A stretch of DNA of 64,000 nucleotides from Klebsiella phage KP13-26 (OP617743.1), one strand, 5' to 3'; counted from the stretch's first letter, positions 2,712-15,926 are shown. Numbers and translations are program-made. The notes: generated from the letters alone by a model not told the origin.

Positions 2712-2780
2712 TTGCAAATGATAATCATTCTCATTCGTATTTCGCTTTTATTTGAGAATGAGAATCATTCTTATTTGCAG
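2712..2780 (+). promoter_or_regulatory. Fur-box-like operator pair
   Basis: AATGATAATCATTCTCATT at 2716-2735 matches 15 of 16 positions of the Fur consensus GATAATGATAATCATTATC. A second copy, GAGAATGAGAATCATTCTTATT, is at 2754-2780. Confidence 0.4.
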
Positions 2781-3030
2781 AATGACACGCAGGTTCGGTG
2801 TTTGTCTCGCGATTCCCGTTATCCCTCGCCATGTAGAAATAATAACATAACCAACACTAGGATCAAGCGTCTTTACATTTCTTTACAAAACTATTCAAGG
2901 CGAACTACCGGCGATTCACCTTCCGACCTGGCCCCAGCGCCTGGTACGTTAGCCCCGCCTTTTCGCCGTGGGGTGGCGTGTCCTCTTCTTTATGGATACA
3001 TTATGCCCCATTCCCTGGGACGTGTCAACA

Positions 3031-3300
3031 TTATTTTTGGGCCTTTTGTGCGTCCAGGACGCCACGCCAAAAGGAGATCCGATCCGGTTTATAACCACAC
3101 GCTGAATAGGCCGCGCCGCATATATCCACTACACACATTTTTACCGCCTTTAAGCCGTGTCCGTGGGCTATAACGTTTGATATTGGGAAAGTGTGTAAGT
3201 CTAGGACTTCCATCACGGTTAACCCTGTATCGCTTGCTACCTGGTGAATGGTGCCACCTTGCCAGCCTAGCGCCTTCATTAAATGTTCTGTATTGGTCAT
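3031..3300 (-). CDS. hypothetical protein (89 aa) in a GC-rich island
   Basis: Minus-strand ORF with AGGAG RBS 8 nt upstream. Strand is opposite to the surrounding early genes. Confidence 0.5.
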   Translation of the reverse strand: MTNTEHLMKALGWQGGTIHQVASDTGLTVMEVLDLHTFPISNVIAHGHGLKAVKMCVVDICGAAYSACGYKPDRISFWRGVLDAQKAQK

Positions 3301-3370
3301 TGCTTGATCTCCTGTGAATGTCTAATGAGTATAAGCCAGGGGCGCACATAGTGCAAGCCCCCAGGATCAA

Positions 3371-3547
3371 TTAATTATACAGGGTATCGGCTAACACTTC
3401 CCCGTTTTCCGCTACAACCTTAACCCGATAAAATCCACCGTCCAACATGCGCAGCGCATGAGGCAAGGGGACAGATCGCGCCTGGCAATGGTTAGCGGAT
3501 GTTTCCCAGGTGTACAGCATTACGATAGTGTCGGACGTTGTGATCAT
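3371..3547 (-). CDS. hypothetical small protein (58 aa)
   Basis: Minus-strand ORF below the 60-aa track cutoff. AAGGAAAG RBS. Sequence MITTSDTIVMLYTWETSANHC... Confidence 0.4.
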   Translation of the reverse strand: MITTSDTIVMLYTWETSANHCQARSVPLPHALRMLDGGFYRVKVVAENGEVLADTLYN

Positions 3548-3650
3548 GTTGCTTTCCTTGTTATGCCTCCACCGTGGCGGCTTGATAACTACTATATACT
3601 AATGAAGGTAAAACGCAAGCGAAAAGATTTAGAAAATATTTGCATCCAAG

Positions 3651-3679
3651 TATTGACGCGAGGATCACACCGAGCTATT
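3651..3679 (+). promoter_or_regulatory. sigma70 promoter TTGACG-N17-TATTAT
   Basis: Consensus spacing; drives ORF 3734. Confidence 0.5.
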
Positions 3680-3733
3680 ATTTCCTACACAAGGCGAGGC
3701 GATAGGCGCTGCGCGCACTAGGAAGAAAAGAAA

Positions 3734-3955
3734 ATGGCAACATTACACGTGGTAGTTTATAAACATGCGGTAACGGGTGATGATATGATCCAGGTACTTG
3801 TTAATGGCTTTTGTGAGATGGAAAGAGAAGCCGATTTTAACGGTTATTGTGTTGTATGTGCTTTCCTTGATTCCCTGGTTGAAATGTGCGTGATCACTCA
3901 TGAGCAGCGCGAAGCGAAGATCAACCGCCTGAAAAAACTTTTAGATATCGAATAA
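3734..3955 (+). CDS. hypothetical early protein (73 aa)
   Basis: ORF with AGGAAG RBS. Confidence 0.6.
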   Translation: MATLHVVVYKHAVTGDDMIQVLVNGFCEMEREADFNGYCVVCAFLDSLVEMCVITHEQREAKINRLKKLLDIE

Positions 3956-3962
3956 AAACCAC

Positions 3963-3990
3963 TTGACAGATTCGCACAGTAACGTATAAT
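3963..3990 (+). promoter_or_regulatory. sigma70 promoter TTGACA-N16-TATAAT
   Basis: Consensus hexamers. Confidence 0.65.
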
Positions 3991-4004
3991 TCACTTCATA
4001 GGCA

Positions 4005-4021
4005 GCGGGAATGGTTCCCGC
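4005..4021 (+). repeat. Leader palindrome GCGGGAATGGTTCCCGC (copy 1)
   Basis: Perfect inverted repeat between the promoter and the RBS. Confidence 0.7.
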
Positions 4022-4044
4022 GCCGATACAAAGAGATTAAAATT

Positions 4045-4581
4045 ATGTCTGACATCATTGAAACTTTCAAATTCTCCCGTAATAACATTGATTTTACTGT
4101 TAGCGTAGTATGTACACAATATTACAATGGATTCGATGATCAATGGAAGATGACCGATACCCATAAGGGCGGCGTAACTATCAAAAACGCTGATGCCGGG
4201 TGGAATGGTTATAAATATGCTATTCCCCAGCAAACTACCCTGGCAGAACTAGCAAGCGCATACGCGGCGCAGGGGCGCGAAAATCCTAGCCGTGAAGCCT
4301 ATGAAAGTCTACAGCGGCAATTATCGCGCGATATTAATGCGAGTGATTACTATTTCAAGGTTGACGCTAGGGCCGGATCTCATATCCTGTTAGATGGTGA
4401 AGTATTTTGTTGCTGTTTTGATTATTCTTACGATGATGAGGGATCATTGTTAGACGTCGCTAAAGAAGTGTGGAAAGAGTACAACGGAGAAGATGAAGCC
4501 CTGGAAGCGGCAACAAAAGCGGCGCGTGACCTCCTGGCAGGCGTAGACGTGTTGAAAAGTATTGTTGAAAACGCGCAATAA
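4045..4581 (+). CDS. hypothetical early protein (178 aa)
   Basis: ORF with AGAGA RBS. Confidence 0.65.
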   Translation: MSDIIETFKFSRNNIDFTVSVVCTQYYNGFDDQWKMTDTHKGGVTIKNADAGWNGYKYAIPQQTTLAELASAYAAQGRENPSREAYESLQRQLSRDINASDYYFKVDARAGSHILLDGEVFCCCFDYSYDDEGSLLDVAKEVWKEYNGEDEALEAATKAARDLLAGVDVLKSIVENAQ

Positions 4582-4584
4582 TAC

Positions 4585-4613
4585 TTGACGCGCCCAAGGA
4601 AAGGGCGCATAAT
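4585..4613 (+). promoter_or_regulatory. sigma70 promoter TTGACG-N17-CATAAT with GCGCCC-N7-GGGCGC palindrome in the spacer
   Basis: The same promoter architecture recurs at 5988, 11658 and 11965. Confidence 0.6.
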
Positions 4614-4643
4614 TCCTCTACACCAACAAAAGAGATTTGAAAA

Positions 4644-4934
4644 ATGAAAATTTCAGAGAACAAAGATCTAATTTTCACCGTTAAAAATTATATACGTTAC
4701 CCATATGAATTTGGCGGATATCCGAAAATTTTAATTATGCGTGATGGTAGTTGCCTTTGCTCAAAGTGTACGCATGAAAATTTTCCCCGCCTATTGGAAG
4801 AATTAAGAGATGAGAGTGATCTAGCATGGATGCCCGCCGACGTGGATATTTTCTGGGAAGGTGCGGATTTCCCGTGTGGTAATTGCCAGACTCCGATCCA
4901 TAGTGCATATGGAGATCCCGAAGAAGAAGAATAA
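4644..4934 (+). CDS. hypothetical protein with CxxC...CxxC (96 aa)
   Basis: ORF containing CSKC and CGNC pairs. Confidence 0.6.
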   Translation: MKISENKDLIFTVKNYIRYPYEFGGYPKILIMRDGSCLCSKCTHENFPRLLEELRDESDLAWMPADVDIFWEGADFPCGNCQTPIHSAYGDPEEEE

Positions 4935-4937
4935 ATA

Positions 4938-4965
4938 TTGACAAGCATCTAAAAGATAGTAAACT
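4938..4965 (+). promoter_or_regulatory. sigma70 promoter TTGACA-N16-TAAACT
   Basis: Hexamers followed by the leader palindrome. Confidence 0.5.
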
Positions 4966-4977
4966 GTTAATCAAAGG

Positions 4978-4994
4978 GCGGGAATGGTTCCCGC
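4978..4994 (+). repeat. Leader palindrome GCGGGAATGGTTCCCGC (copy 2)
   Basis: Identical 17-mer. Confidence 0.7.
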
Positions 4995-5016
4995 GCCTCA
5001 CCAAAGGTAGAAGATT

Positions 5017-5163
5017 ATGAAACAACGTGTAATGAAAATCCATACCAATACCGGATCAACCGTTGTCACTCCCTCCCGTTTCGCTATCGCAAGCCGTTGC
5101 GCTCGTTTGAAACGTGAGTTAAAATCTAACCAGGGCGCGGGGTTTACCAGATGGGGGAAATAA
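5017..5163 (+). CDS. hypothetical small basic protein (48 aa)
   Basis: Sub-cutoff ORF with AAGGTAGAAG RBS. Confidence 0.45.
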   Translation: MKQRVMKIHTNTGSTVVTPSRFAIASRCARLKRELKSNQGAGFTRWGK

Positions 5164-5170
5164 TAACGCA

Positions 5171-5431
5171 ATGAAACCACTGTTTTTAAGCTGTGAGGGC
5201 GAGGTGATCGCCTTCATGGATTCAACAGCCTACGATCTGGCACGGTATGCAATGACGTTTAGAGGGAACGTATATAAAAGGAATGGCGGAGGATATACTA
5301 TCTTTAATCATCGCAATGCCGAGGTAAAGGACGTCACAAGGGTGGATTTAGGGAAGTACCGGATCGGGTGGATGCCATCACGTGATGCGGCAAGCCTTTA
5401 CCGTGTGTGTGAGTTAGTAACGAGGGGCTAA
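5171..5431 (+). CDS. hypothetical protein (86 aa)
   Basis: ORF. Confidence 0.55.
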   Translation: MKPLFLSCEGEVIAFMDSTAYDLARYAMTFRGNVYKRNGGGYTIFNHRNAEVKDVTRVDLGKYRIGWMPSRDAASLYRVCELVTRG

Positions 5432-5434
5432 CCT

Positions 5435-5983
5435 ATGGGGCGCGAGCATGTTGTGCAATCTTGGGTAAAACATGATGAGGATGATTGGAGGGTGATCCCT
5501 CCTCACCTCCTAGACACTGCCAGCGGATACAGTGGCGAGCAAGTGGGGCAACGTGTAGCCCGTAACAACGGGAACACGGCGATTCGCGCCACGATTCCTG
5601 GTTGGCTGCCAAATGGCCGCGCCGACATTGCAGGGGCGGCAGATCCGGCAGATGAAGCAAAAGGTGATCCGCTACTGCTAGTAGATCCAGCGTTTAAGAC
5701 GCTTTTAGAGTACCCTGGCAAGGTGGCGGCGCTGGAGGCTGCGCATAGGGCGGGTAAATTGCCGGATAGCTTATATCGTAGCGCCTTGCGCGTCTTAGAC
5801 GTGAAAGCAGATAAGGCACAGCGCAAGATCGACAAGCTGGCGGGATCTGTCCTCCTGGAGGAAGAGAACGCGCCAGATGAGGAGCCGGAATTGATTCCGG
5901 TAGTCCTGGAGGAGGACGCGATCACGCCGTATCATCCTACACCGGAAGAGGCGGAGCAAGCCTTACGAAATTATTTTAAATAA
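5435..5983 (+). CDS. hypothetical protein (182 aa)
   Basis: ORF with GAGGGG RBS. The long antisense ORF at 5503-5925 is rejected. Confidence 0.6.
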   Translation: MGREHVVQSWVKHDEDDWRVIPPHLLDTASGYSGEQVGQRVARNNGNTAIRATIPGWLPNGRADIAGAADPADEAKGDPLLLVDPAFKTLLEYPGKVAALEAAHRAGKLPDSLYRSALRVLDVKADKAQRKIDKLAGSVLLEEENAPDEEPELIPVVLEEDAITPYHPTPEEAEQALRNYFK

Positions 5984-5987
5984 AGGA

Positions 5988-6016
5988 TTGACAAGCGCCC
6001 AAGAGGGGCGCATAAT
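5988..6016 (+). promoter_or_regulatory. sigma70 promoter TTGACA-N17-CATAAT with GCGCCC/GGGCGC spacer palindrome
   Basis: As the 4585 promoter. Confidence 0.6.
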
Positions 6017-6062
6017 TCATCACATAGGGCGGCAATGACGCCGACACCAAAGAGGATAGATT

Positions 6063-6179
6063 ATGTTAATCAAGAAAGAAAACTGTTTTTTCACTGGTAT
6101 TATCAATGCGCTGATCCTTTCGGTTCCATTGTGGGTAGTTATCGGTTTTACTTTGTGGTTAGTATCGAAAGCAGCGTAA
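6063..6179 (+). CDS. small membrane protein (38 aa)
   Basis: Hydrophobic sub-cutoff ORF with AGAGGA RBS. Confidence 0.4.
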   Translation: MLIKKENCFFTGIINALILSVPLWVVIGFTLWLVSKAA

Positions 6180-6187
6180 AAAAGTAG

Positions 6188-6216
6188 TTGACAGGCAGAT
6201 CCAAAGGGTCTAATAT
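6188..6216 (+). promoter_or_regulatory. sigma70 promoter TTGACA-N17-TAATAT
   Basis: Hexamers followed by a GGCGG...CCGCC leader hairpin. Confidence 0.55.
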
Positions 6217-6269
6217 TCATATCAAGGCGGGGAGATAGGCGAACCGCCAAAGCTGAAAAGGTTGGCATT

Positions 6270-6509
6270 ATGGCAAAGTCAAAAGGTTTTAACGGTCACA
6301 AAAACTGGAATCATTGGAATGTTGCATTATGGATCAATAATGATGAGGGATTATACCGCTATGCAATCGGGTTAATCAATGAGTGCAGTAGCAAGGATGA
6401 GGCCGCGGATCTGATGTGCTACCGTCTTGCGCAAGATGGCATCACCAAAACACCGGACGGCGCGCCGTACAGCAAAACCACGATCCGCGCTGCAATGGTT
6501 GGAATGTAG
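6270..6509 (+). CDS. hypothetical protein (79 aa)
   Basis: ORF. Confidence 0.55.
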   Translation: MAKSKGFNGHKNWNHWNVALWINNDEGLYRYAIGLINECSSKDEAADLMCYRLAQDGITKTPDGAPYSKTTIRAAMVGM

Positions 6510-6536
6510 AAAAATCGTCAATCTTATAAAATAAGG

Positions 6537-6565
6537 TTGACAACCTTCTAAAATAAAGTAAACTG
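6537..6565 (+). promoter_or_regulatory. sigma70 promoter TTGACA-N16-TAAACT
   Basis: Hexamers. Confidence 0.5.
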
Positions 6566-6573
6566 TTAATCAA

Positions 6574-6592
6574 GGCGGGAATGATTCCCGCC
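6574..6592 (+). repeat. Leader palindrome GGCGGGAATGATTCCCGCC (copy 3, variant)
   Basis: Inverted repeat. Confidence 0.65.
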
Positions 6593-6611
6593 ACAACAAA
6601 GAGAGAAAATT

Positions 6612-6773
6612 ATGATTGCCATGAATACTCGCGAAGCCGCTCGCAACGTAGCCCGTAAAGTTAACGCCGTTGCACCTGCTAAATTGAAAGCACCAGTGAA
6701 AGGCGAAAACGGCTGGATCTTCCCTGGCTTGTCTCATAACGATGGCAAAGGCACCTTGAGCCTGAAAAAATAA
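6612..6773 (+). CDS. hypothetical small protein (53 aa)
   Basis: Sub-cutoff ORF with AGAGAGAAAA RBS. Confidence 0.45.
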   Translation: MIAMNTREAARNVARKVNAVAPAKLKAPVKGENGWIFPGLSHNDGKGTLSLKK

Positions 6774-6782
6774 GGGTATACC

Positions 6783-6938
6783 ATGACAAAAGATCAAGCT
6801 TTAAAAATGTTATCCGAAGCACTGACAGCAGCAACCGAAAGTGGATTACTTGACGATGAAATGTTAGGTGCGGTAGCAAACGCCGAAAGCATTAATGATT
6901 TTTGTGATGCGGTGGCGTACTTAGAAAATAGTTGTTGA
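6783..6938 (+). CDS. hypothetical small acidic protein (51 aa)
   Basis: Sub-cutoff ORF. Confidence 0.4.
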   Translation: MTKDQALKMLSEALTAATESGLLDDEMLGAVANAESINDFCDAVAYLENSC

Positions 6939-6963
6939 CTTTTCGTTATGCCGTGCTATCATG
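6935..6963 (+). promoter_or_regulatory. sigma70 promoter TTGACT-N16-TATCAT with a hairpin over the -10
   Basis: GTTGACTTTTCGTTAT motif shared with the 7277 promoter. Confidence 0.55.
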
Positions 6964-7026
6964 TACGGCATAGAGAAAAAGAAACATCCGGCAATAATGC
7001 CTATATCATCAATAAAGGAGATACAC

Positions 7027-7272
7027 ATGACAACTACTAACCTGCTGAAAACCCCGCGTATCGGTGATTCTGTATTCATTGGTTTTGCCACTAATGGCGA
7101 CGGCAAAATGGTTAAGGGTGGCGCTGAAATTCCGTTCGATAAGGTGGCGGCAATCTACGCCGAAACTTCCACCACTAAGGACGGTAAAACCATGCATCAT
7201 GTACGCACAGCGAGCGGCGACGCGGTTGCAGTGATCGGTTGTTCAAAAAACTACTGGCACGCTGTTAAATAA
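7027..7272 (+). CDS. hypothetical protein (82 aa)
   Basis: Internal ATG with AAGGAG RBS; the track extension from 6961 is rejected. Confidence 0.55.
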   Translation: MTTTNLLKTPRIGDSVFIGFATNGDGKMVKGGAEIPFDKVAAIYAETSTTKDGKTMHHVRTASGDAVAVIGCSKNYWHAVK

Positions 7273-7276
7273 GCAG

Positions 7277-7304
7277 TTGACTTTTCGTTATAGCGTCCTA
7301 TAAT
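7277..7304 (+). promoter_or_regulatory. sigma70 promoter TTGACT-N16-TATAAT
   Basis: Hexamers. Confidence 0.6.
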
Positions 7305-7346
7305 GGGCGCTATAGAGAAGAGAAACCACGTTAAACAGGTGAAATC

Positions 7347-7508
7347 ATGACCAACAAAGATAAAGCAACTATTCGCGCACATTACCCGCATTTAACCTTA
7401 CGGTTTAAAGCTGATGGATCTGTAATGGCGTCCAGTGGGCGCGGGTACGCTTACGGGTTATTGTATACAGCAGAGCAAGCACAAGCACACTTAAATTCAG
7501 TAAAATAA
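7347..7508 (+). CDS. hypothetical small protein (53 aa)
   Basis: Sub-cutoff ORF. Confidence 0.4.
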   Translation: MTNKDKATIRAHYPHLTLRFKADGSVMASSGRGYAYGLLYTAEQAQAHLNSVK

Positions 7509-7538
7509 GTTGACTTTCTGTAATGGCTGTTAGATAAT
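7509..7538 (+). promoter_or_regulatory. sigma70 promoter TTGACT-N17-GATAAT
   Basis: Hexamers with a palindrome over the -10. Confidence 0.5.
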
Positions 7539-7583
7539 ACAGCCATTGAAGAGAGAAACCAAACAATCTAACGAGGTGATAAA

Positions 7584-7805
7584 ATGGTTACATTTGCAAT
7601 TATTTCCCTGGTGGCTGGCAACGTGTTTATCAATGACACTTTCCCGGCAGATGATAGCAAGCCCGGCGAGATCAGCACAGCTTATGCAGATTGTAAAGCC
7701 GCCGAACGTATGTTATCGCCTTGCTTGCTGATGAGTGAGCGAGACGACGGGAAAATCGTATTCACCAACGTTGAAACCTGGTATCAATTAGTAGTTGCAA
7801 AATAA
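7584..7805 (+). CDS. hypothetical protein (73 aa)
   Basis: ORF with GAGG RBS. Confidence 0.55.
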   Translation: MVTFAIISLVAGNVFINDTFPADDSKPGEISTAYADCKAAERMLSPCLLMSERDDGKIVFTNVETWYQLVVAK

Positions 7806-7853
7806 ATTTCATCTGATAGAATACTGACATCACTTAAGTAAAAGGGCAATAAC

Positions 7854-8081
7854 ATGAAACGCAAAATCACTATTTCTTATGAGTGGACGCAAGCAGATGG
7901 TAGTGAAGTACTGGATCACCACAAAGAGTACTTGGAAGAGTCAGCCGATGATCGTATCCGCGAACAGATTGCAGTAGGTTGTATTGAGGGGCAATTGCTC
8001 GACAACATCCACACGCAGGAAGATCCCGACGACCACGAAGGGACAGAGTATAAAGGTTGGTGGACTTTAATTACCGAGTAA
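7854..8081 (+). CDS. hypothetical acidic protein (75 aa)
   Basis: ORF with AAGGG RBS. Confidence 0.55.
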   Translation: MKRKITISYEWTQADGSEVLDHHKEYLEESADDRIREQIAVGCIEGQLLDNIHTQEDPDDHEGTEYKGWWTLITE

Positions 8082-8165
8082 AATTAGTGGAAAAATAAAT
8101 TTAGTTCTGTATAATGTTTTACATAGAGACGGGAAACACCTTTTCCCACTAATTAAGGAAAACAA

Positions 8166-8438
8166 ATGAAACTCTTAACTTCTTCTGAAATTCACACTAT
8201 ACTGACAACCAATATCCAAGATTGGAAAAAGTATGCAGATATCGAAAATGTTCAGGATCTTAATAGTTCATTAAAAGATACTGATGTTTTATATATTTTG
8301 GTATCACCTGATTTTTATGATGATATTAATGATGTAGAGCAGGAACTTGAATCCGTATTGGATAAGCATTTTTTACCGTTCAATCGTGATTTTAAACGAG
8401 AATCATATATTTTGATGCATAACATTTACAATAAGTAA
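8166..8438 (+). CDS. hypothetical protein (90 aa)
   Basis: ORF with AAGGAA RBS. Confidence 0.55.
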   Translation: MKLLTSSEIHTILTTNIQDWKKYADIENVQDLNSSLKDTDVLYILVSPDFYDDINDVEQELESVLDKHFLPFNRDFKRESYILMHNIYNK

Positions 8439-8456
8439 AATAAATTACAAGTTCTA

Positions 8457-8484
8457 TTGACATTATTTGGTAGTACTTTATAAT
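8457..8484 (+). promoter_or_regulatory. sigma70 promoter TTGACA-N16-TATAAT
   Basis: Hexamers. Confidence 0.6.
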
Positions 8485-8536
8485 ACTTACCTACAGACAG
8501 ATAGTCTGTTCTTATTTGACTACAACAGAGTAATGA

Positions 8537-8689
8537 AATGAATCCCAAGCATAAAATGATGATGGAAGCAAGCCGTTTTATCAATAAAACAGAAAAAAGA
8601 AAATGTTTTGTTTTATGTCTAATAACGCTTGCAATTGGTTTGGCTTGTGTTATTATTACTTACGCTGATTTATCAAATACCACTAAATA
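8537..8689 (+). CDS. small membrane protein (50 aa)
   Basis: Sub-cutoff ORF with a C-terminal transmembrane segment. Confidence 0.4.
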
Positions 8690-8701
8690 AGAGATAAGAT
8701 T

Positions 8702-9058
8702 ATGAATAACATCCTGATTGAGAAACGCGCCGAACTGCTGGAAGTTAAACAGGCTATCTATGCAAAACAGAGAGAGATCCGCAACTTCTCTTACGAGTCA
8801 ACTGATGATGAGTATGATTCTTATTTGGATGGATGCTATGGCGATCTTGACGTTTGCGGCAGCACTTTCAGCGCGTCCTATGCTCTTAAAAATCTTGACC
8901 CTACGGCGTACCGTTGCGGAAAGTCAGATTATGACAGTGAAAAAGATCTTGACGATGTGCCGGAGTATGTTACACTCATGGAAGAGCTGGAAGAGCTGGA
9001 AGATAAAGAAACCGATCTGGAAAACGAGATCGAAGAGCTGGAAGTGAGCGAAGAATAA
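8702..9058 (+). CDS. hypothetical acidic coiled-coil protein (118 aa)
   Basis: ORF. Confidence 0.55.
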   Translation: MNNILIEKRAELLEVKQAIYAKQREIRNFSYESTDDEYDSYLDGCYGDLDVCGSTFSASYALKNLDPTAYRCGKSDYDSEKDLDDVPEYVTLMEELEELEDKETDLENEIEELEVSEE

Positions 9059-9070
9059 TTTAAAAACAGG

Positions 9071-9099
9071 TTGACAAGGTAAACAGTTTAAAGTAGATT
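9071..9099 (+). promoter_or_regulatory. sigma70 promoter TTGACA-N17-TAGATT
   Basis: Hexamers. Confidence 0.5.
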
Positions 9100-9111
9100 A
9101 TTATTCAAGAC

Positions 9112-9130
9112 GGCGGGAATTGTTCCCGCC
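9112..9130 (+). repeat. Leader palindrome GGCGGGAATTGTTCCCGCC (copy 4)
   Basis: Inverted repeat. Confidence 0.65.
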
Positions 9131-9150
9131 TCACAGATAAAGGTAACACC

Positions 9151-9522
9151 ATGAAAGCAGCAGAGAAAATCAAATCTTACATCCTGGCAGCGATTGATTT
9201 TGAAGGCGAAAACGGCAAAACGTTTACCACCGAGGAAGAGAAGATCACCGAACTGATGCGCCGCTTTAAAGCTGAATATTGGTATCCAGCAAATCAGCAG
9301 CGCTACGGCACCATGACAAAAGCAATGGCCTCATGGTTGCAGGGTTTACCGTCTGACATTAATCACGCATTCTATTATGATGAGATTGATTCTCTTTTGA
9401 TTGAGTGGGGTTATCTAAAACATACCAGCCGTGAAGCAACAATTGACCGCGAGCGGGATCAATACTGGCTTTATCTGGCGGGTTCACTGATGAGCCTTGC
9501 AAAGGGTTACAACCTGGCATAA
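9151..9522 (+). CDS. hypothetical protein (123 aa)
   Basis: ORF with AAAGG RBS. Confidence 0.6.
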   Translation: MKAAEKIKSYILAAIDFEGENGKTFTTEEEKITELMRRFKAEYWYPANQQRYGTMTKAMASWLQGLPSDINHAFYYDEIDSLLIEWGYLKHTSREATIDRERDQYWLYLAGSLMSLAKGYNLA

Positions 9523-9582
9523 GATACACAACAACGGCGGCAACTTCCCGCCACACTTTGAAAATAAAATGAGGGTTTAAAA

Positions 9583-9717
9583 ATGAATGGTAGCCACCAC
9601 GTCGAAAAAATGGCAAGCGATAAACAGCGAAAATCATGGGACGATGAAACCGGGCGCAAAGGAGACAAGCGCAATAAAACAAAACGAGATCGGAGTGAAA
9701 AACGACGTTGGGAGTAA
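9583..9717 (+). CDS. hypothetical small basic protein (44 aa)
   Basis: Sub-cutoff ORF followed by a terminator. Confidence 0.35.
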   Translation: MNGSHHVEKMASDKQRKSWDDETGRKGDKRNKTKRDRSEKRRWE

Positions 9718-9723
9718 TAAGGA

Positions 9724-9748
9724 GGGGCGCAGATAGCGCCCTTTTCGC
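9724..9748 (+). terminator. Rho-independent terminator
   Basis: GGGGCGC-AGATA-GCGCCC stem followed by TTTTCGCTTT. Confidence 0.6.
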
Positions 9749-9834
9749 TTTATACAGCGTTTTCTATAGTGAGCCATACAAACACCAGGGAGCACCATAA
9801 AAACCGCTTAGAACGTATTACAGGAGCTTAGACA

Positions 9835-10017
9835 ATGATATTAGAACAGATTCAAAAGGCACTAGCCCAGGGCGGCAGACTTTCAGCACGTTACCGTGAT
9901 CAATGGGGTTTTATCATTAGCGGCGTGATCCTGGCTACCGAGGGCGGCGACGTGCTGATCGATACCCTGAAAAACCGAGTGAAGCCGGAGATGGTGATAT
10001 CTATCAAGCACCTTTGA
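9835..10017 (+). CDS. hypothetical protein (60 aa)
   Basis: ORF whose RBS (AGGAG) lies inside repeat element copy a. Confidence 0.5.
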   Translation: MILEQIQKALAQGGRLSARYRDQWGFIISGVILATEGGDVLIDTLKNRVKPEMVISIKHL

Positions 10018-10108
10018 TTGATAGGTTTAAACGATTAGACACTGCATCGATAATGGCACATAGTAGATACATAGAGCGGGGCAAAGGCCAGCTAGGGGAG
10101 GAAACGAA

Positions 10109-10492
10109 ATGAAAAAATTTATCATCGCCGCTATGCTGGCAGCAGTAAGCGCCAGCGCAGCAGCAGACACCGAGATCAACGTGATGAGCGCAAGCCGTGA
10201 TTTACGCGCCAGTATTGAAAAAATGTTAATTGTATCAGGTGATAATAACGCAACGTTACGATCTTACACCTTATCAAAAACCTTTGAGGACGCGCTTGAT
10301 TCTCAAATGATACCTATTCTCAATAATGACCCTGATGCATCATGCGAGCTTATCGCAGCGCGGATCGCGGAAAACGGGCGGCAGAACTACGCGCCTTATC
10401 AGGTTAACCCACTTATGACAAGGGCTATTGATAATATGATCGGTAAAATGGTTGTTTATACTATGGCGCGGTGTTATTACTTAAAGGGTTGA
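10109..10492 (+). CDS. secreted/periplasmic hypothetical protein (127 aa)
   Basis: N-terminal signal peptide MKKFIIAAMLAAVSASA/AAD. GGGGAGG RBS. Confidence 0.6.
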   Translation: MKKFIIAAMLAAVSASAAADTEINVMSASRDLRASIEKMLIVSGDNNATLRSYTLSKTFEDALDSQMIPILNNDPDASCELIAARIAENGRQNYAPYQVNPLMTRAIDNMIGKMVVYTMARCYYLKG

Positions 10493-10517
10493 CAGGAAGC
10501 ACTTGATCGATTATCTT
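10489..10517 (+). promoter_or_regulatory. sigma70 promoter TTGACA-N17-TATCTT
   Basis: Hexamers. Confidence 0.5.
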
Positions 10518-10547
10518 TAAGCCAGGCAAACAAAAGGGTAAAGAAAA

Positions 10548-10823
10548 ATGATTCAGGCTAACACTTTAATGATGTTTCAGGAAGTGCAAAACGCCGCTGT
10601 AATGGTTGAGCAATTCCAGGACGGCGACACCATGATCGCCACGTTGAAAGAGAACGCCGAAAGCATTCTAATCATTAGCTTGAAAACAGTTGCAAAAGGT
10701 TATTATTCCCTTGCTTATCATTTTATCACTAATGATGATGAAGCAAGCCAAGATTTTTCCCTGCCTTTCCCGGCAAATTATGCGCCAGCTTTTGTGGCTG
10801 CAATTATTAATGATGTTTTCTAA
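10548..10823 (+). CDS. hypothetical protein (91 aa)
   Basis: ORF with AAGGGTAAAG RBS. Confidence 0.55.
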   Translation: MIQANTLMMFQEVQNAAVMVEQFQDGDTMIATLKENAESILIISLKTVAKGYYSLAYHFITNDDEASQDFSLPFPANYAPAFVAAIINDVF

Positions 10824-11106
10824 TGGGTAATGAATAAAGAAAGTCAATAGCTTTCCCAGTTATTTTTCATTTTTGCGTTATGCAAAAAAGTGAATTTAAA
10901 GACTTCTCATGCAAGATGATTAAGGGTATGGCAAACGGCGAGAGCCGCTTAGAATGCGTTTTAGAGCGTTTTAGCGGGTATTGACTTTTCCAGAAACGCT
11001 CAAAGCGTCTTAAATTTAGTTTCATCGTGTGATTATTTGCATACAGGTGCATTTCTATTCATTTTTCTGAATAATGTAAATATGATGAATATTCCATTCA
11101 TCCCTA

Positions 11107-11134
11107 TTGACTACCCGACCCGATCTGCTATGAT
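11107..11134 (+). promoter_or_regulatory. sigma70 promoter TTGACT-N16-TATGAT
   Basis: Hexamers. Confidence 0.5.
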
Positions 11135-11189
11135 TTATCACGTAGGGCGGGGCAATAATGCAGCGCCACAAAATCCGAAGGATTGTATT

Positions 11190-11648
11190 ATGAATAAATT
11201 CTGTGTAGGTCAAAAAGTTATTGATTGTTTCAATGATCGTAAACTGTTAACGGTTGTTAAAACTTTTGAATCTGGTCAAATCGAACTTGAAAACGGCGTG
11301 ATCACCTATACGGATCGGGTTCAACGCCAAGAGCATTACCTTGATCATACAAATTACCTGTACCATCATTCTCGTTTTGGTGATGCTGTATGCATGATCA
11401 ATGAAGCGTTTCAAGAGTACATTTCAGGACTTGCCGAAATGGGAGATTTATGCTCTTATCCTGGGGAATCTGTTTTCATAATGAAAGCGCGTACCATGTG
11501 CCAAACGTGGATCGACGAAGCCGCCGCGAGGATTGAGCATGGTTTAGCCTGGAAGCGTACAGCAGAACACAATTTATCACAGTGGTATCGTGTACCGCTT
11601 GATCATCACTTCCCATTCCTTAACCCTGAAAATGTGACAGACTACTAA
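11190..11648 (+). CDS. hypothetical protein (152 aa)
   Basis: Internal ATG with AAGGA RBS; the track extension from 11037 is rejected. Confidence 0.55.
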   Translation: MNKFCVGQKVIDCFNDRKLLTVVKTFESGQIELENGVITYTDRVQRQEHYLDHTNYLYHHSRFGDAVCMINEAFQEYISGLAEMGDLCSYPGESVFIMKARTMCQTWIDEAAARIEHGLAWKRTAEHNLSQWYRVPLDHHFPFLNPENVTDY

Positions 11649-11657
11649 AAAATAGTG

Positions 11658-11686
11658 TTGACGCGCCCAAGGAAAGGGCGCATAAT
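11658..11686 (+). promoter_or_regulatory. sigma70 promoter TTGACG-N17-CATAAT with spacer palindrome (identical to the 4585 promoter)
   Basis: 29-bp identity to the promoter at 4585. Confidence 0.6.
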
Positions 11687-11698
11687 TCATCACATAGA

Positions 11699-11717
11699 GC
11701 GGGGAGCGGTTCCCCGC
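11699..11717 (+). repeat. Leader palindrome variant GCGGGGAGCGGTTCCCCGC
   Basis: Inverted repeat. Confidence 0.55.
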
Positions 11718-11737
11718 TAAATGAGAGAGATTCCATT

Positions 11738-11962
11738 ATGTTCGATTTAGACAGACTGGCAACAGCGATTGAAAAAGCAGGTGATGCAAAGTATGGCATC
11801 CAAGATCATTACTTTATCGGTCAATATCCTGATGGTACTTACTACGGTGTATTGTCTAACAAAGTGAAAAGCCGTAGCAGCGCCGCTCAACTGCGAAGCC
11901 CGGAATTTTTCGAACAAAAAGGCATTAAAGCGATCAAGGTTATGAAGCGTAAAGCTAAATAA
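11738..11962 (+). CDS. hypothetical protein (74 aa)
   Basis: Leader AAATGAGAGAGATT is shared with the gene at 15679. Confidence 0.55.
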   Translation: MFDLDRLATAIEKAGDAKYGIQDHYFIGQYPDGTYYGVLSNKVKSRSSAAQLRSPEFFEQKGIKAIKVMKRKAK

Positions 11963-11964
11963 AT

Positions 11965-11994
11965 TTGACAACGCGCCCGAAGAGGGCGCATAAT
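11965..11994 (+). promoter_or_regulatory. sigma70 promoter TTGACA-N18-CATAAT with GCGCCC/GGGCGC spacer palindrome
   Basis: Hexamers. Confidence 0.5.
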
Positions 11995-12024
11995 ACATTT
12001 TTATATTGTACCGGAGTTTAATAA

Positions 12025-12477
12025 ATGAAAATCACAGAAAAAGATATCGCACCTGGTAAAGTATTCTATAATGTATTTTTCCTGCCAGGACGTAGCGCAG
12101 CCAAATTAGAATCGAAGGTTATTGTAACATCTTTTGTTAATACTAATAACAATATTAAAAGACCCTGGTTTACTTGTATTCATGATTACCGCCCCTATGG
12201 GTTCGATTGGGAAAATAAAGACGCACATAATTTTTTAGGTGATATTGGTATTGGGGCATGTTATAATATGCACAGGATGTTTACAACCGAAGAAAGCGCC
12301 CTTGATTATGTCAAACAATGTAATTCCGGGGTTTTTGTAGACAAAGAAGACCAAAAGTATTATGATAGTGAGACTAGTTTAGAGGCCATCACGAGAAGGG
12401 AATATTTAGAGCTAGTTGATAATGATTTCTGGAATCTTGAGGATGATTATCAAAGTACGCCGGAAGATTTTCAATAA
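12025..12477 (+). CDS. hypothetical protein (150 aa)
   Basis: ORF with GGAG RBS. Confidence 0.6.
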   Translation: MKITEKDIAPGKVFYNVFFLPGRSAAKLESKVIVTSFVNTNNNIKRPWFTCIHDYRPYGFDWENKDAHNFLGDIGIGACYNMHRMFTTEESALDYVKQCNSGVFVDKEDQKYYDSETSLEAITRREYLELVDNDFWNLEDDYQSTPEDFQ

Positions 12478-12490
12478 CTAAGGTAGAATC

Positions 12491-12727
12491 ATGAAAACGA
12501 AAAGCATTCTCATTAACAAAAAATTTCCCAATCGTGTCTGGGAAATTAGTGAAGTGATCCACGCCGGGACGATTGAACAATATAACCGTTTAATTGGGTA
12601 TATCCGGGAAACTGAATGCGGTTATGTCTGGACTCATTCTGGACTAAACCGCGAAAGCGCAAGCTATTTCCCAACAAAACCCCTTGCGCTGATAGGTTTA
12701 AAGATGGTGCATCAAGATTATAAATAA
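12491..12727 (+). CDS. hypothetical protein (78 aa)
   Basis: ORF with AAGG RBS. Confidence 0.5.
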   Translation: MKTKSILINKKFPNRVWEISEVIHAGTIEQYNRLIGYIRETECGYVWTHSGLNRESASYFPTKPLALIGLKMVHQDYK

Positions 12728-12745
12728 TTTATTTCGCCCTGGGGC

Positions 12746-12774
12746 TTGATCTCCCTGGGGCGTTTTGCTATCCT
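12746..12774 (+). promoter_or_regulatory. sigma70 promoter TTGATC-N17-TATCCT
   Basis: Weaker hexamers. Confidence 0.35.
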
Positions 12775-12782
12775 TATTTTGT

Positions 12783-12802
12783 GGGCGGGAATGGTTCCCG
12801 AC
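12783..12802 (+). repeat. Leader palindrome GGGCGGGAATGGTTCCCGAC (copy 5, imperfect)
   Basis: Inverted repeat. Confidence 0.6.
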
Positions 12803-12820
12803 ACATAACGGGGATTTAAC

Positions 12821-13120
12821 ATGCAACCTTTACAATTACTTTCCACTTTACGCGCTATTGCCAACAACACTTTGATCGCTTGCCAGCGCCAGGAGTTTAA
12901 ACCTGAATTCATCTATAAGAATCATAACCAGCAGTTAGCCACCATTGAACAGGCAATTAGTGGTTACAAAATGGGGGCAAAGGTTAACGCGAAATATAAA
13001 GCAGAGATCAAGAAAATAACGCTTGCACCAATGAAAGATAAGAATTATTATCTAATCAGTGAGCAGGTGAAAGGCGGCGTAAGCCAACTAACCAGCGCGA
13101 TTGACTTCATGAAACGATAA
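12821..13120 (+). CDS. hypothetical protein (99 aa)
   Basis: ORF. Confidence 0.55.
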   Translation: MQPLQLLSTLRAIANNTLIACQRQEFKPEFIYKNHNQQLATIEQAISGYKMGAKVNAKYKAEIKKITLAPMKDKNYYLISEQVKGGVSQLTSAIDFMKR

Positions 13121-13167
13121 CCAGCGATTAACCAGGAGGGCGGCAGCAATGCCGCCAACAATGAAGA

Positions 13168-13431
13168 ATGAAAAACATCATTTACCGATTGACAAAACGC
13201 AACATTCTGATCGCTACTGTGATCGCTTGCCTTTTCGCTTTCGTGAGTAACGCAACGTTTAACGCTGTGGGCGGGATGCTGTTTAATGCTGGAAATGTTT
13301 CAACAGCTAACACAATGATCGACATTTTGCAACTTTTCTTTTATGTCGCCTTTCGTTTAAAAATAGCTTGCAAACTGGATCGCTATGATGTACCTTTTAT
13401 TTGTGGCGGCGTGATAGCTATTGTATGTTAA
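13168..13431 (+). CDS. putative membrane protein (87 aa)
   Basis: Hydrophobic ORF with a weak RBS. Confidence 0.4.
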   Translation: MKNIIYRLTKRNILIATVIACLFAFVSNATFNAVGGMLFNAGNVSTANTMIDILQLFFYVAFRLKIACKLDRYDVPFICGGVIAIVC

Positions 13432-13444
13432 CCGGAGTAAAAAC

Positions 13445-13738
13445 ATGTTAAGATCTAACAAAAATTTAAAATTGCGTCAATCCCTCGTTAATATGGCGAT
13501 CAGTGTTGAGCCGTACAAACGAAAGGAGCCTAAGCAAGATATGCGAGGGCGCAAAACAACCTGGACAGATCAACAGGTATTAGAGATCCGGGCCTTACAT
13601 AAATATGGCGGCATGTTACCCGCCGAAATTGCAGAACGTTACAACACCACGAAAGGTGCAATAAATAGCTTGCTTTCTTATGTTACCCGCGTACACTTAG
13701 AGCCAGAAAGAAAACATTTACCAGCGAGAGAGGCTTGA
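13445..13738 (+). CDS. HTH DNA-binding protein (putative early transcriptional regulator)
   Basis: Internal ATG with GGAG RBS. Helix-turn-helix-like segment LPAEIAERYNTTKGAINSLL. Confidence 0.45.
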   Translation: MLRSNKNLKLRQSLVNMAISVEPYKRKEPKQDMRGRKTTWTDQQVLEIRALHKYGGMLPAEIAERYNTTKGAINSLLSYVTRVHLEPERKHLPAREA

Positions 13739-13762
13739 CAATAGCAGCGGATCTGGTAAAGT
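13735..13762 (+). promoter_or_regulatory. sigma70 promoter TTGACA-N16-TAAAGT
   Basis: Hexamers. Confidence 0.4.
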
Positions 13763-13813
13763 GTATCACGTAGGGCGCGGAATAAGCCGAGGCCCGTAAA
13801 AGAGGTTAGAAAC

Positions 13814-14011
13814 ATGTTTACTTACTTGCTAATTAATGATTCAGCTAATGAAGTGGTGCATACTGATAAGCCATCTTTGCCGGGTTTTCGTCATTTTGGT
13901 AAATATGAAAATTGCAAGCAAATTTCGTGCTTTACTGGAAAAGTCATTTCCACCGTTGAAGATGACTTGGAAATCCTCACAAAAATTTGTAACTTGCGTT
14001 TAACTAAATAG
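13814..14011 (+). CDS. hypothetical protein (65 aa)
   Basis: ORF with AGAGG RBS. Confidence 0.5.
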   Translation: MFTYLLINDSANEVVHTDKPSLPGFRHFGKYENCKQISCFTGKVISTVEDDLEILTKICNLRLTK

Positions 14012-14013
14012 GA

Positions 14014-14406
14014 ATGATTCTCATGTCCAACTTTGATATCTTTTTAGCGGCTTATGTTGAGGCTATGTTTTGGAGTAGTAGCGGGACAACCCCGGACGGG
14101 GAAGATCTGGAAAGTCTGGAAGGGTTCGAACTTTCCACCGAAGCGAAGCGCAAGGCTAAAGGAGAATGCGAATCATTCTTATTTGCAGGGGCTAACCTCC
14201 TGGCTGATCTGCCTGAATGGTACGGGAAAGGCGACGGCGGCGCATACGCTTATGCTGGGCATGACTTTTGGCTTACTCGCAACCATCACGGTGCTGGATT
14301 CTGGGATCGTGGGCTAGGTGATTTGGGCGACCGCCTCACCACGTTAGCGCAGACATATGAGGAGTCTGATCCCTATATTGGCGATGATGGAAAAATTTAT
14401 TATTAA
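14014..14406 (+). CDS. hypothetical protein (130 aa)
   Basis: ORF with AGGAA RBS. The alternative-frame ORF at 14054-14317 is rejected. Confidence 0.55.
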   Translation: MILMSNFDIFLAAYVEAMFWSSSGTTPDGEDLESLEGFELSTEAKRKAKGECESFLFAGANLLADLPEWYGKGDGGAYAYAGHDFWLTRNHHGAGFWDRGLGDLGDRLTTLAQTYEESDPYIGDDGKIYY

Positions 14407-14412
14407 AAACGC

Positions 14413-14441
14413 TTGCAACGCTGATCGCCGTTTGCTATAGT
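14413..14441 (+). promoter_or_regulatory. sigma70 promoter TTGCAA-N17-TATAGT
   Basis: Hexamers. Confidence 0.5.
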
Positions 14442-14451
14442 TTACCACGTA

Positions 14452-14471
14452 GGGCGGGAATGGTTCCCGCC
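14452..14471 (+). repeat. Leader palindrome GGGCGGGAATGGTTCCCGCC (copy 6)
   Basis: Inverted repeat. Confidence 0.7.
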
Positions 14472-14486
14472 TCCCGGAGAAACATC

Positions 14487-14876
14487 ATGAAAAATTCCAT
14501 TGTTATCACTAATAACGACAAATTAACTACCCTGATCGGGATTGTTAACGATGTTTCGCCATTCCTGGTGAAAACCATGTACAAATATATGCAGGAGTGC
14601 AAATATAGTATTTGGGCAGAGCATTGCCACTACCAGGATGAAAGCGCGGCGGAGTATATGATCGCACGTCTGCGGGATAATATGCAAGCGTGCTTATCAC
14701 AGAGCATGATTAATGAGATTGATTCTCGTTATTCAATGGCGCTTGAATATCAAGCACAAGCACAATACTCGCAGCTCGACTACGAAGAGCAGCAGGATCA
14801 GGAGGCTTTTTGGGAACGTAGCGACGCACAGGCTGATTTTGATGATAAGGTGAGCATGTATTACAACGAATATTAA
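14487..14876 (+). CDS. hypothetical protein (129 aa)
   Basis: Start at ATG 14487 after CGGAGA. The track start at 14460 lies inside the palindrome and is rejected. Confidence 0.55.
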   Translation: MKNSIVITNNDKLTTLIGIVNDVSPFLVKTMYKYMQECKYSIWAEHCHYQDESAAEYMIARLRDNMQACLSQSMINEIDSRYSMALEYQAQAQYSQLDYEEQQDQEAFWERSDAQADFDDKVSMYYNEY

Positions 14877-14925
14877 TAAACAAGGGGAGCCGCTACGGTT
14901 CCCCATCTTTATAAGGATAAATAGT

Positions 14926-15213
14926 ATGTTTACAGTCAAAGAAAAAACATTATTGTTAAAAGTGTTAAAAGATTATCCCCGTAACATGAGAGAACCATTT
15001 GAAACGAATGGAGAATTTGAGCAGCACTTAAAAGAGGTTGACTCATTGATTAAAAAGGTGGAAGATTTTTCCCCCGTAAATATGAAGTACTACGACGATG
15101 GATGGAATGATTTTGTAAACGGTAAACCTTTTGATGAATCTCAAAGGGAAAATATCCATTATAGTGATGGTTATGATGATTCAAAGTTCTATAATGCCAA
15201 AGAAGAGATTTAA
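14926..15213 (+). CDS. hypothetical protein (95 aa)
   Basis: ORF with AAGGA RBS. Confidence 0.55.
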   Translation: MFTVKEKTLLLKVLKDYPRNMREPFETNGEFEQHLKEVDSLIKKVEDFSPVNMKYYDDGWNDFVNGKPFDESQRENIHYSDGYDDSKFYNAKEEI

Positions 15214-15224
15214 TCTTTACAATT

Positions 15225-15253
15225 CCAGGGCTTGCTTTTTGCCCTGGTTTTGC
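15225..15253 (+). terminator. Rho-independent terminator
   Basis: CCAGGGC-loop-GCCCTGG stem followed by TTTTGC. Confidence 0.55.
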
Positions 15254-15598
15254 TATTATCTTTTATAGGCTATGGCACCTGATGCAGGGGGAGACAAACA
15301 CCGAACCTGCCCGTCATTCAGGGAAGCTAACCGAACCTGGACGCCTCCCTTCAAATGAGAATTACTCGCAACAAACATCGTGCCAACTTTACTTTCTAAG
15401 TGAGAAAAATTCTTATTAGTGAGATCTATTTGTTTATGAGCTAGGGTATTACCAGGACACAAAAGCGCTTAAAATCGATTCTAGAGCGTTTTAAAGGTAT
15501 GTATGTTTATACAGGTTATGAAAATAAATTTGACAAAGTTTTTATAGTGTGCTATTCGCATATGATTGTTTTCTTTACAGTTCTTTACAAATCTACTC

Positions 15599-15626
15599 TT
15601 GCATGAAATATCAGTTATGCTATTAT
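15599..15626 (+). promoter_or_regulatory. sigma70 promoter TTGCAT-N16-TATTAT
   Basis: Hexamers. Confidence 0.5.
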
Positions 15627-15678
15627 TTATCTCGTAGGGCAGGAACACGAAATCAACCACTAAATGAGAGAGATTATT

Positions 15679-15873
15679 ATGTACATCATCAAAGGCACTG
15701 AAAAGGTTATGGGTTTAGGTCACATGGCTGCACATATTGAAAACATGACCGGAAAAACGAATGACCGACTTTATGATCATGTTGTTACCCGCCTGGCAGC
15801 TATGAAAAACATCGGACAGCTTGAAGGGTTCAGCGTAGCAGGGCAGCAAGTAACAGTAATCAAAATCGGCTAA
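15679..15873 (+). CDS. hypothetical protein (64 aa)
   Basis: Second in-frame ATG chosen by analogy with the 11738 leader. Confidence 0.5.
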   Translation: MYIIKGTEKVMGLGHMAAHIENMTGKTNDRLYDHVVTRLAAMKNIGQLEGFSVAGQQVTVIKIG

Positions 15874-15926
15874 CAATCTGGGGCGTGACAAGCGCCCTAA
15901 CAATAAACTCACATAGGAAAACGAAA

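Follow-up and report, generated by a model that had tools for sequence, protein, structure and literature searches.

A repeated promoter–hairpin–leader cassette in the early region of Klebsiella phage KP13-26 and related large myoviruses

The stretch of DNA analyzed here (64,000 nucleotides, referred to below as the window) comes from Klebsiella phage KP13-26 (OP617743.1), which by its sequence is a phi92-like myovirus of the Stephanstirmvirinae, a group with genomes of about 140–150 kb. After about 1.3 kb of non-coding DNA the early gene array begins; this early region (3900–15000) is a series of small open reading frames (ORFs) of unknown function, and the ORFs lying downstream of the elements described below possess no Pfam domain and fall into PHROGs of unknown function. 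Its closest record is Klebsiella phage KP2025 (93.5% identity over 84% of the length), other Klebsiella Stephanstirmvirinae matching the region only patchwise. Within this array a short palindrome recurs; it forms the stem-loop part of an expression cassette of about 85 bp that is repeated in front of many of the small early ORFs.

Using a search that allowed up to three mismatches, the 17-mer GCGGGAATGGTTCCCGC was found six times between nucleotides 4005 and 14470, always on the + strand and in the short gaps separating small + strand ORFs. Three copies are exact (4005–4021, 4978–4994 and 14454–14470) and three carry one mismatch (6575–6591, loop TGA; 9113–9129, loop TTG; and 12785–12801, last base A). 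Counting both strands there were 11 matches against 0.04 expected (0/100 shuffles). Each 17-mer starts 10–14 nucleotides (nt) past the -10 element of a TTGxxx-N16/17-TAxxxT promoter and ends 16–23 nt before a start codon, with a Shine-Dalgarno (SD) sequence and ATG downstream. The mean identity among the six copies is 94% within the 17-mer and only 28–39% in the promoter spacer, in the stretch between the -10 element and the stem, and in the downstream 20 nt. A preliminary description of this DNA had listed near-identical palindromes in the leaders of at least six early transcription units, which these counts and the far less conserved flanks confirm; the starts that it gave at 6574, 9112, 12783 and 14452 are right within 0–2 nt, being those of extended palindromes of 19–21 nt.

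The promoter of cassette A (3963–3990) is of the sigma70 type (TTGACA-16-TATAAT; score 12/12) and is followed by hairpin copy 1 (4005–4021, GCGGGAA-tgg-TTCCCGC), the stem of which is extended by GGC.A...GCC over 4001–4024 (minimum free energy [MFE] -16.5, z -3.7). In cassette B the promoter (4938–4965, TTGACA-16-TAAACT; 10/12) precedes copy 2 (4978–4994), which is exact and has 20 nt (GCGGGAATGGTTCCCGCGCC) in common with copy 1. Cassette C is about 85% identical to cassette B over its whole length, with a promoter at 6537–6564 (TTGACA-16-TAAACT; 10/12) and copy 3 at 6574–6592 (GGCGGGAA-tga-TTCCCGCC; z -5.2). Copy 4 (9112–9130, GGCGGGAA-ttg-TTCCCGCC) lies behind a promoter at 9071–9099 (TTGACA-17-TAGATT; 10/12), and copy 5 (12785–12801, GCGGGAA-tgg-TTCCCGA; 6 bp plus outer GUG/CAC pairs) behind a weak one at 12746–12774 (TTGATC-17-TATCCT; 8/12), the -35 element of which overlaps a terminator-like hairpin at 12735–12762. 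Copy 6 (14453–14471, GGCGGGAA-tgg-TTCCCGCC) is served by a promoter at 14413–14441 (TTGCAA-17-TATAGT; 9/12). All of these features are on the + strand. The six scores thus comprise one of 12/12, three of 10/12, one of 9/12 and one of 8/12, so that the strong sigma70 promoter ascribed to every copy in the preliminary description is found for four of them, the other two having weaker ones; all six nonetheless have a promoter-like site and a ribosome binding site (RBS). At copy 6, a called ORF (14460–14876) begins at an ATG within the loop of the hairpin. The true start is more likely the in-frame one at 14487, which has the SD sequence GGAG 8 nt before it, and gene callers may make this gene too long.

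A covariance model (R1) was built from an ungapped, loop-anchored seed of 20 hairpins and aligned sequences by the model thereafter; the loop-anchored seed was used instead of a MAFFT alignment of 48 hairpins, which was structurally inconsistent. In the 64-kb window R1 recovered the six copies and two further sites, at 11695 and 8125, all within 4000–14475, and nothing at E < 1 beyond 16 kb. The element being palindromic, each site also gave a - strand match, the + strand score always being higher. The site at 11698–11718 (AGCGGGGA-gcggt-TCCCCGCT; + strand, 22 bits; promoter 11658–11686, 10/12, with a stem-loop in its spacer) is one of three that had been noted as variants, and is a true member of the family. 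A second, at 13139–13156 (GGCGGCA-gcaa-TGCCGCC, + strand), is a related hairpin to which the model gives a weak score (12.6 bits) and which has no recognizable promoter; the third, at 14884–14904 (GGGGAGCCG-cta-CGGTTCCCC, + strand), is followed by a T-rich tail just past a stop codon and is a terminator-like hairpin, not a leader hairpin. The eighth member, at 8131–8147 (GGGAAA-cacct-TTTCCC, + strand; promoter 8088–8115), is a weak one that had not been listed before.

The cassettes of the window were compared with those of KP2025, phi1_175008, FKP3, FBKp34, KP13-16, Citrobacter phage Tr1, Justusliebigvirus ALITA and Phapecoctavirus PNJ1809-36. A scan of the + strand early promoters revealed a shared leader order, in which the -10 element is followed after about 5 nt by CA(Y)RTAG(R), then by a G/C-rich hairpin and, past an A/C-rich spacer that contains the SD sequence, by ATG. 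Over these nine early regions R1 identified 62 + strand members. The preliminary description had suggested looking for the motif in related phages, and in the eight relatives the promoter–hairpin–RBS cassette does recur, some 5–17 times per early region. A TTGxxx/TAxxxT promoter lies upstream of all 62 members and scores at least 10/12 in 48 of them; positions drawn at random from the same DNA reach this in 2.2% of cases. Among 76 promoter-associated instances from 12 phages, the distance from the end of the -10 element to the start of the stem is 11.4 ± 1.9 nt and that from the end of the stem to the start codon 20.4 ± 2.5 nt; the stems measure 6–10 bp (mostly 7–9 bp), and the loops 3 nt (54 instances), 4 nt (18) or 5 nt (4). 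Several stem types and loops of 3, 4 and 5 nt occur together inside single genomes.

In the model-derived alignment, standard pairs occupy 96.4% of cells against 79.8% in shuffles, and a covariation score of 0.393 (reached by 0/500 shuffles) compares with 0.135 in shuffles and at most 0.086 when the partners are slid. Some of the covariation reflects register shifts, in which one arm has an additional A and the opposite arm an additional T to match. The + strand rows comprise 80 distinct sequences with 28 different 5' arms, and their pairs include 577 Watson-Crick (93%), 25 G.U, 11 A.C and 9 others. Compensatory changes were also seen at orthologous sites, defined through flanking colinear homology: GGCGGGAA/TTCCCGCC at window position 9112 corresponds to GGGGGA-gcggt-TCCCCC in KP2025, and the same arms at 6574 correspond to AGCGGTAA/TTATCGCT in FBKp34, a difference of two double changes and one G.U pair. 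Across the family, then, pairing rather than sequence is maintained. The orientation of the mismatches (G.U versus A.C) was 12 to 13 in a first test, which was swamped by hairpins from outside the family, and 25 to 11 in a second, which includes artefact pairs forced by the model alignment; the excess of G.U is only suggestive of selection at the RNA level.

Seven leaders were folded from the seventh nucleotide past the -10 element through the AUG. In all seven predictions the hairpin is the dominant structure, lying 3–4 nt from the assumed 5' end, and the SD sequence and AUG are unpaired. The MFE ranges from -12 to -17.5 kcal/mol, with z from -3.3 to -5.2 in four leaders and from -1.5 to -2.0 in the three G/C-rich ones. 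For an assumed start 7–8 nt past the -10 element, about 3–6 nt would be left unpaired at the 5' end. On the + strand the six copies are neither followed by a T-run nor called terminator-like, their tails being gccgatac, gcctcacc, acaacaaa, tcacagat, cacataac and tcccggag. An Rfam scan of 2200–19000 gave no match at E ≤ 1.

On comparison of the genomes, copies of the hairpin demonstrably mark recombination junctions between related phages, and the near-identical copies are seen to serve as short direct repeats for the deletion, insertion and swapping of ORF modules. FKP3 is without window positions 4025–4977 (a 953-bp indel). The one cassette that it has here is identical with cassette A as far as the hairpin and with cassette B from there on, which places the crossover inside the 20 nt (GCGGGAATGGTTCCCGCGCC) that the two share. 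KP13-16 is without 5021–6536 (a 1.5-kb indel) and carries a chimera of cassettes B and C, the switch falling within the hairpin of copy 3. Homology to KP2025 runs out at 14460, within the copy 6 loop, and that to three relatives breaks at 13158, at the foot of the 13139 hairpin. Altogether 31 of 74 homology-block ends lie in cassettes, which make up 14.5% of the region, part of this enrichment being expected for any intergenic site. The palindrome had been considered too conserved for a generic stabilizing hairpin; this is a fair point, as the 17-mer stands far above its flanks, which recombination between the copies partly explains.

A cassette query against a phage collection gave further matches in Vequintavirinae and jumbo phages, and R1 recovered the promoter–hairpin–RBS arrangement in two Vequintavirinae, Serratia phage Kashira and Cronobacter phage GAP31, and in coliphage WPEC3. 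Kashira contains the identical 19-mer GGCGGGAATGGTTCCCGCC four times; GAP31 has stems of the type GCCGGGGA/TCCCCGGC and one copy of the identical 19-mer; and in the 384-kb jumbo coliphage WPEC3 about 20 copies, their stems of the type GGGGAGAA/TTCTCCCC, lie within 14.6 kb. WPEC3 (L026:8873–8899, GGCGGGA-tcag-TTCCCGCC) and GAP31 (L028:10622–10648, GCCGGGA-taat-TTCCCGGC) also possess hairpins of the same type that are promoterless, followed by TTTTTT and terminator-like, which suggests that leader hairpins and terminators may have a common origin. At the nucleotide level the small early ORF at 6270–6509 is about 70% identical to homologs in the rV5 group of the Vequintavirinae and in the jumbo phages 121Q, PBECO4 and slurp01 (about 350 kb), so that early ORFans are common to otherwise unrelated phage lineages, which would fit an exchange of early modules between them. 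Among bacteria, taken as one genome per species, the exact 19-mer gave 45 scattered single matches, all of them outside the usual hosts, in taxa that are unrelated and mostly GC-rich; the motif is therefore not a host element. An exact-motif scan of IMG/VR returned 17 mostly unrelated single matches, and only two contigs of about 150 kb appear to be relatives.

The closest described system is that of the PeSL (promoter-early stem-loop) cassettes of the T4-like phages RB49/phi1, PST/T4 and nt-1/KVP40 (Arbiol et al. 2010, PMC2839356; Comeau et al. 2014, PMC4122927). These consist of a sigma70 early promoter with AT-rich upstream DNA and a polyG/polyC stem-loop, are repeated about 50 times before ORFans in hyperplastic regions, and mediate modular shuffling and mini-circle formation (PMC2839356; PMC4122927). 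The cassettes described here share with them a near-consensus sigma70 early promoter (at least 10/12 for 48 of the 62 hairpins), AT-rich DNA in the 20 nt 5' of each -35 element (e.g. aataaaaaccac, agaataaata, ataaaataagg, aatttaaaaacagg and ttattaaaaacgc), stems of G- and C-tracts (GCGGGAA/TTCCCGC, GGGGAGAA/TTCTCCCC and GCCGGGGA/TCCCCGGC), many copies in a variable early region before small ORFans, and a location at the junctions of indels and module swaps between close relatives (FKP3 and KP13-16).

They nevertheless differ from PeSLs in phage family, placement relative to the predicted start, terminator signature and homology. The hosts are Stephanstirmvirinae, Vequintavirinae and a jumbo phage rather than Straboviridae. 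PeSL stem-loops lie upstream of, within or just past the promoter boxes, before the start (in RB49 mostly between -35 and -10), whereas the hairpin here lies 9–14 nt past the -10 element (11.4 ± 1.9 nt on average), beyond the canonical start and in the predicted transcript. No U-tract or other terminator signature accompanies it. The RB49 stem-loops (GGGGAT..ATCCCC, in the promoter spacer) are not homologous to it, and homology to the stem-loops of RB49/phi1 was rejected, R1 having no promoter-associated match in 100 kb of RB49 (best 19 bits). Terminator activity and mini-circles are experimental findings on PeSLs. Placements of the classical PeSL kind do occur in the window: the promoters at 4585–4613 and 11658–11686 have an identical stem-loop (gcgccc-aaggaaa-gggcgc) in their spacers, the -10 hexamer lies inside a hairpin loop at 6946–6973 and at 7288–7315, and the terminator hairpin at 12735–12762 overlaps the next -35 element. 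A literature search for the motif, for promoter hairpins in phi92, rV5, PVP-SE1 and RaK2 and for transcription in Stephanstirmvirinae, in which the coverage of subscription journals was poor, yielded no description of the element.

Two other kinds of leader element invite comparison. The leader of T7 gene 10 contains a stabilizing 5' stem-loop. The ompA and papA leaders are cited in PMC3997798 as having 5'-terminal stem-loops with this effect. As in such leaders, a stable hairpin is predicted here a few nucleotides from the 5' end of the mRNA, followed by an open RBS, and a function that depends on pairing and not on sequence would agree with the covariation. Stabilizing hairpins have about 0–4 unpaired nt before them, as compared with the 3–6 predicted here, and ompA, papA and T7 gene 10 are single-gene elements, whereas the present hairpins form a multicopy, near-identical family across phage lineages. 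The lambda nut site resembles the element in having a short hairpin (boxB) in an early-transcript leader. It differs in that here there is no boxA and no N-like protein was identified; boxB has a 5-bp stem and a 5-nt GNRA-like loop, as against 7–9 bp and 3 nt; and the element is present in 8–17 copies, each with its own promoter.

The explanation that we favor, with a probability of roughly 0.55, is that the palindrome acts as a 5'-proximal RNA hairpin that stabilizes and insulates early mRNAs, inside a PeSL-like, horizontally shared promoter–leader cassette. The cassette is made up of an AT-rich upstream segment, sigma70 -35 and -10 elements, about 11 nt, a G/C-rich hairpin of 7–9 bp, an A/C-rich spacer of about 20 nt with the SD sequence, and ATG, and would drive many of the small early ORFs. 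Host RNA polymerase would initiate about 7 nt past the -10 element, so that the hairpin would be transcribed as approximately +5 to +25 of each early mRNA and would fold co-transcriptionally, leaving about 3–6 unpaired 5' nt and an open SD sequence and AUG. It would then hinder 5'-end-dependent decay by RppH and RNase E, and would insulate the translation start region from upstream or downstream context; any ORF placed behind the cassette would be expressed. In E. coli, 5' secondary structure stabilizes mRNAs because RppH and RNase E require single-stranded 5' ends (PMC3997798). A tblastn search of the window with the RNase E activator Srd of RB49, the presence of which could have accounted for protective hairpins, found nothing, a result that is uninformative since the window covers only 64 kb of the genome.

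Several observations weigh against this explanation. The start sites are predicted ones; at canonical spacing about 4–6 nt would be unpaired, which according to the work of Belasco is reportedly at the upper limit for protection by a 5' hairpin. About 8 of the 21 cassettes of the region are without a leader hairpin, which is thus not obligatory. The alignment used for the covariation analysis was fitted to the structure, and its sequences are related paralogs and orthologs; as the G.U test is only suggestive, selection on RNA rather than on single-stranded DNA or a cruciform is unproven. Finally, an identity of 94% in the 17-mer against 28–39% in its flanks, together with the same 19-mer in Vequintavirinae, exceeds what a purely structural stabilizer would need.

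That retention of exact sequence, within the genome and across lineages, would be explained if an RNA-binding factor read the hairpin. On this alternative, which we hold as tentative, a phage or host protein would bind the apex GAA-URG-UUC and coordinate the fate of early mRNAs, whether by shutting off their translation, by processing them, by protecting them from phage-induced mRNA decay or by antitermination. The hairpin sequence is conserved far above its flanks, the 19-mer GGCGGGAATGGTTCCCGCC recurs in Kashira and GAP31 between different flanks, and in three phage lineages most loops read T(G/A)G and are closed by A-T pairs; yet loops such as TGA, TTG, CAC, CGC, GCGGT, ACTTC and AAA also occur, no candidate binding protein was identified, and the hairpin has no boxA nearby, no overlap with the SD sequence or AUG and no Rfam family. 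Conceivably, the hairpin with its G-rich 5' arm and this apex is a sequence-specific tag on early mRNAs, which three or more lineages of large virulent enterobacterial myoviruses (the Stephanstirmvirinae, the Vequintavirinae and jumbo phages of 350–380 kb) have come to share in part by horizontal transfer, and which a common host or phage factor reads; such a tag would mark early transcripts as "self" to escape phage-induced mRNA decay, or would permit their coordinated shut-off. Among the specific roles put forward in the preliminary description, an RNase III site is unlikely for helices of 6–10 bp, the canonical substrate being a helix of about two turns (~20 bp), and a nut-type antitermination site was rejected, no boxA-like sequence adjoining any copy (the boxA pattern has two matches in the 64 kb, which is the chance level, neither of them in a leader). 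Translational control by the hairpin itself finds no counterpart in the predicted folds, where it is not paired with the SD sequence or AUG; control through an RNA-binding factor is the form in which that proposal could still hold. A different RNA-level reading, proposed for PeSL stem-loops, is that of an attenuator, terminator or 3' exonuclease barrier for read-through from the upstream gene. A PeSL stem-loop did cut lacZ expression like a strong terminator (PMC2839356), T-run hairpins of the same type exist without promoters in WPEC3 and GAP31, and there are few other terminators between the early genes, but none of the six copies has a + strand T-run or terminator call, and each lies downstream of the next promoter and so would attenuate that promoter's own transcript; we regard this role as unlikely.

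The remaining alternatives place the function in the DNA. The palindrome had been proposed as an operator for a dimeric phage regulator, such as a helix-turn-helix (HTH) protein placed at 13445. On this reading a dimeric repressor would bind it and block the early promoters. A perfect inverted repeat centered about 20 nt past the -10 element is where a bound protein could obstruct RNA polymerase, and the ORF at 13421–13738 weakly matches the PHROG "transcriptional regulator, D5-like" (E = 4e-5). The arms, however, change together, 28 distinct arms exist, and half-site spacings of 3, 4 and 5 nt are found in one genome. The ORF at 13445–13738 has no Pfam match, to an HTH domain or otherwise. By tblastn its only matches are a distant Pseudomonas phage and five records of Klebsiella phages, and it is missing from FKP3, ALITA, PNJ1809-36 and Tr1, which have 5–17 hairpins each. 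A fixed double-stranded DNA operator is very unlikely, since varied stems and spacings coexist and the supposed partner is missing from four hairpin-bearing phages. It is likewise highly improbable that the palindrome has no role in expression and is a recombination or selfish-repeat signal, such as a cruciform hotspot or a site at which a structure-specific nuclease acts, homogenized by gene conversion. Crossovers do map within the hairpin, and site-specific recombination was left open by the authors of the PeSL work (PMC4122927). Against this, the distances to promoter and start codon are tightly fixed over 76 instances from divergent phages and the stems diverge yet keep pairing, and therefore selection would seem to act on the transcribed structure and not merely on copy identity.

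A few other features of the window may be recorded. The non-coding DNA just 5' of the early array (2230–3550) has no credible ORFs and contains an AT-rich 66-nt tandem pair at 2468–2599, as well as Fur-box-like palindromes at 2714–2732 (16/19 to GATAATGATAATCATTATC) and 2753–2775 that jointly form a 24-nt inverted-repeat pair; Serratia phage Kashira has a similar sequence, gaatgataatcattctc, in the region that corresponds to this one (after L027:4972), and a further Fur-box-like site lies at 16538–16556. The GC skew changes sign near 30 kb, where hairpins reading as bidirectional terminators are located at 28545–28565, 29214–29233 and 30132–30152; rightward and leftward transcription units probably converge at this point. 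No tRNA genes were found in the 64 kb. In the public records of KP2025 and other phages, tiny ORFs matching window positions 4644–4934, 5017–5163 and 13445–13738 bear implausible names that probably arose as artefacts of annotation: "DNA ligase" (96 aa), "portal protein" (48 aa) and, for a 97-aa ORF, "ribosomal protein subunit L20" or "HNH endonuclease".

Should the favored explanation, a 5' hairpin that stabilizes and insulates early mRNAs, be correct, phi92-like, rV5-like and some jumbo phages would use a standard, portable promoter–leader module for early genes of unknown function, the module's own repeats would drive the gain, loss and exchange of those genes, and the PeSL concept of the mobile regulatory cassette would reach beyond the T4-like phages. 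R1 provides a simple sequence handle for early transcription units and mosaic junctions in these families of therapeutic phages, and the cassette may serve as a compact natural promoter-plus-5'-UTR (untranslated region) part for expression in Enterobacteriaceae. The conservation of the hairpin across lineages also makes the idea of a common recognition tag on early phage mRNAs directly testable.

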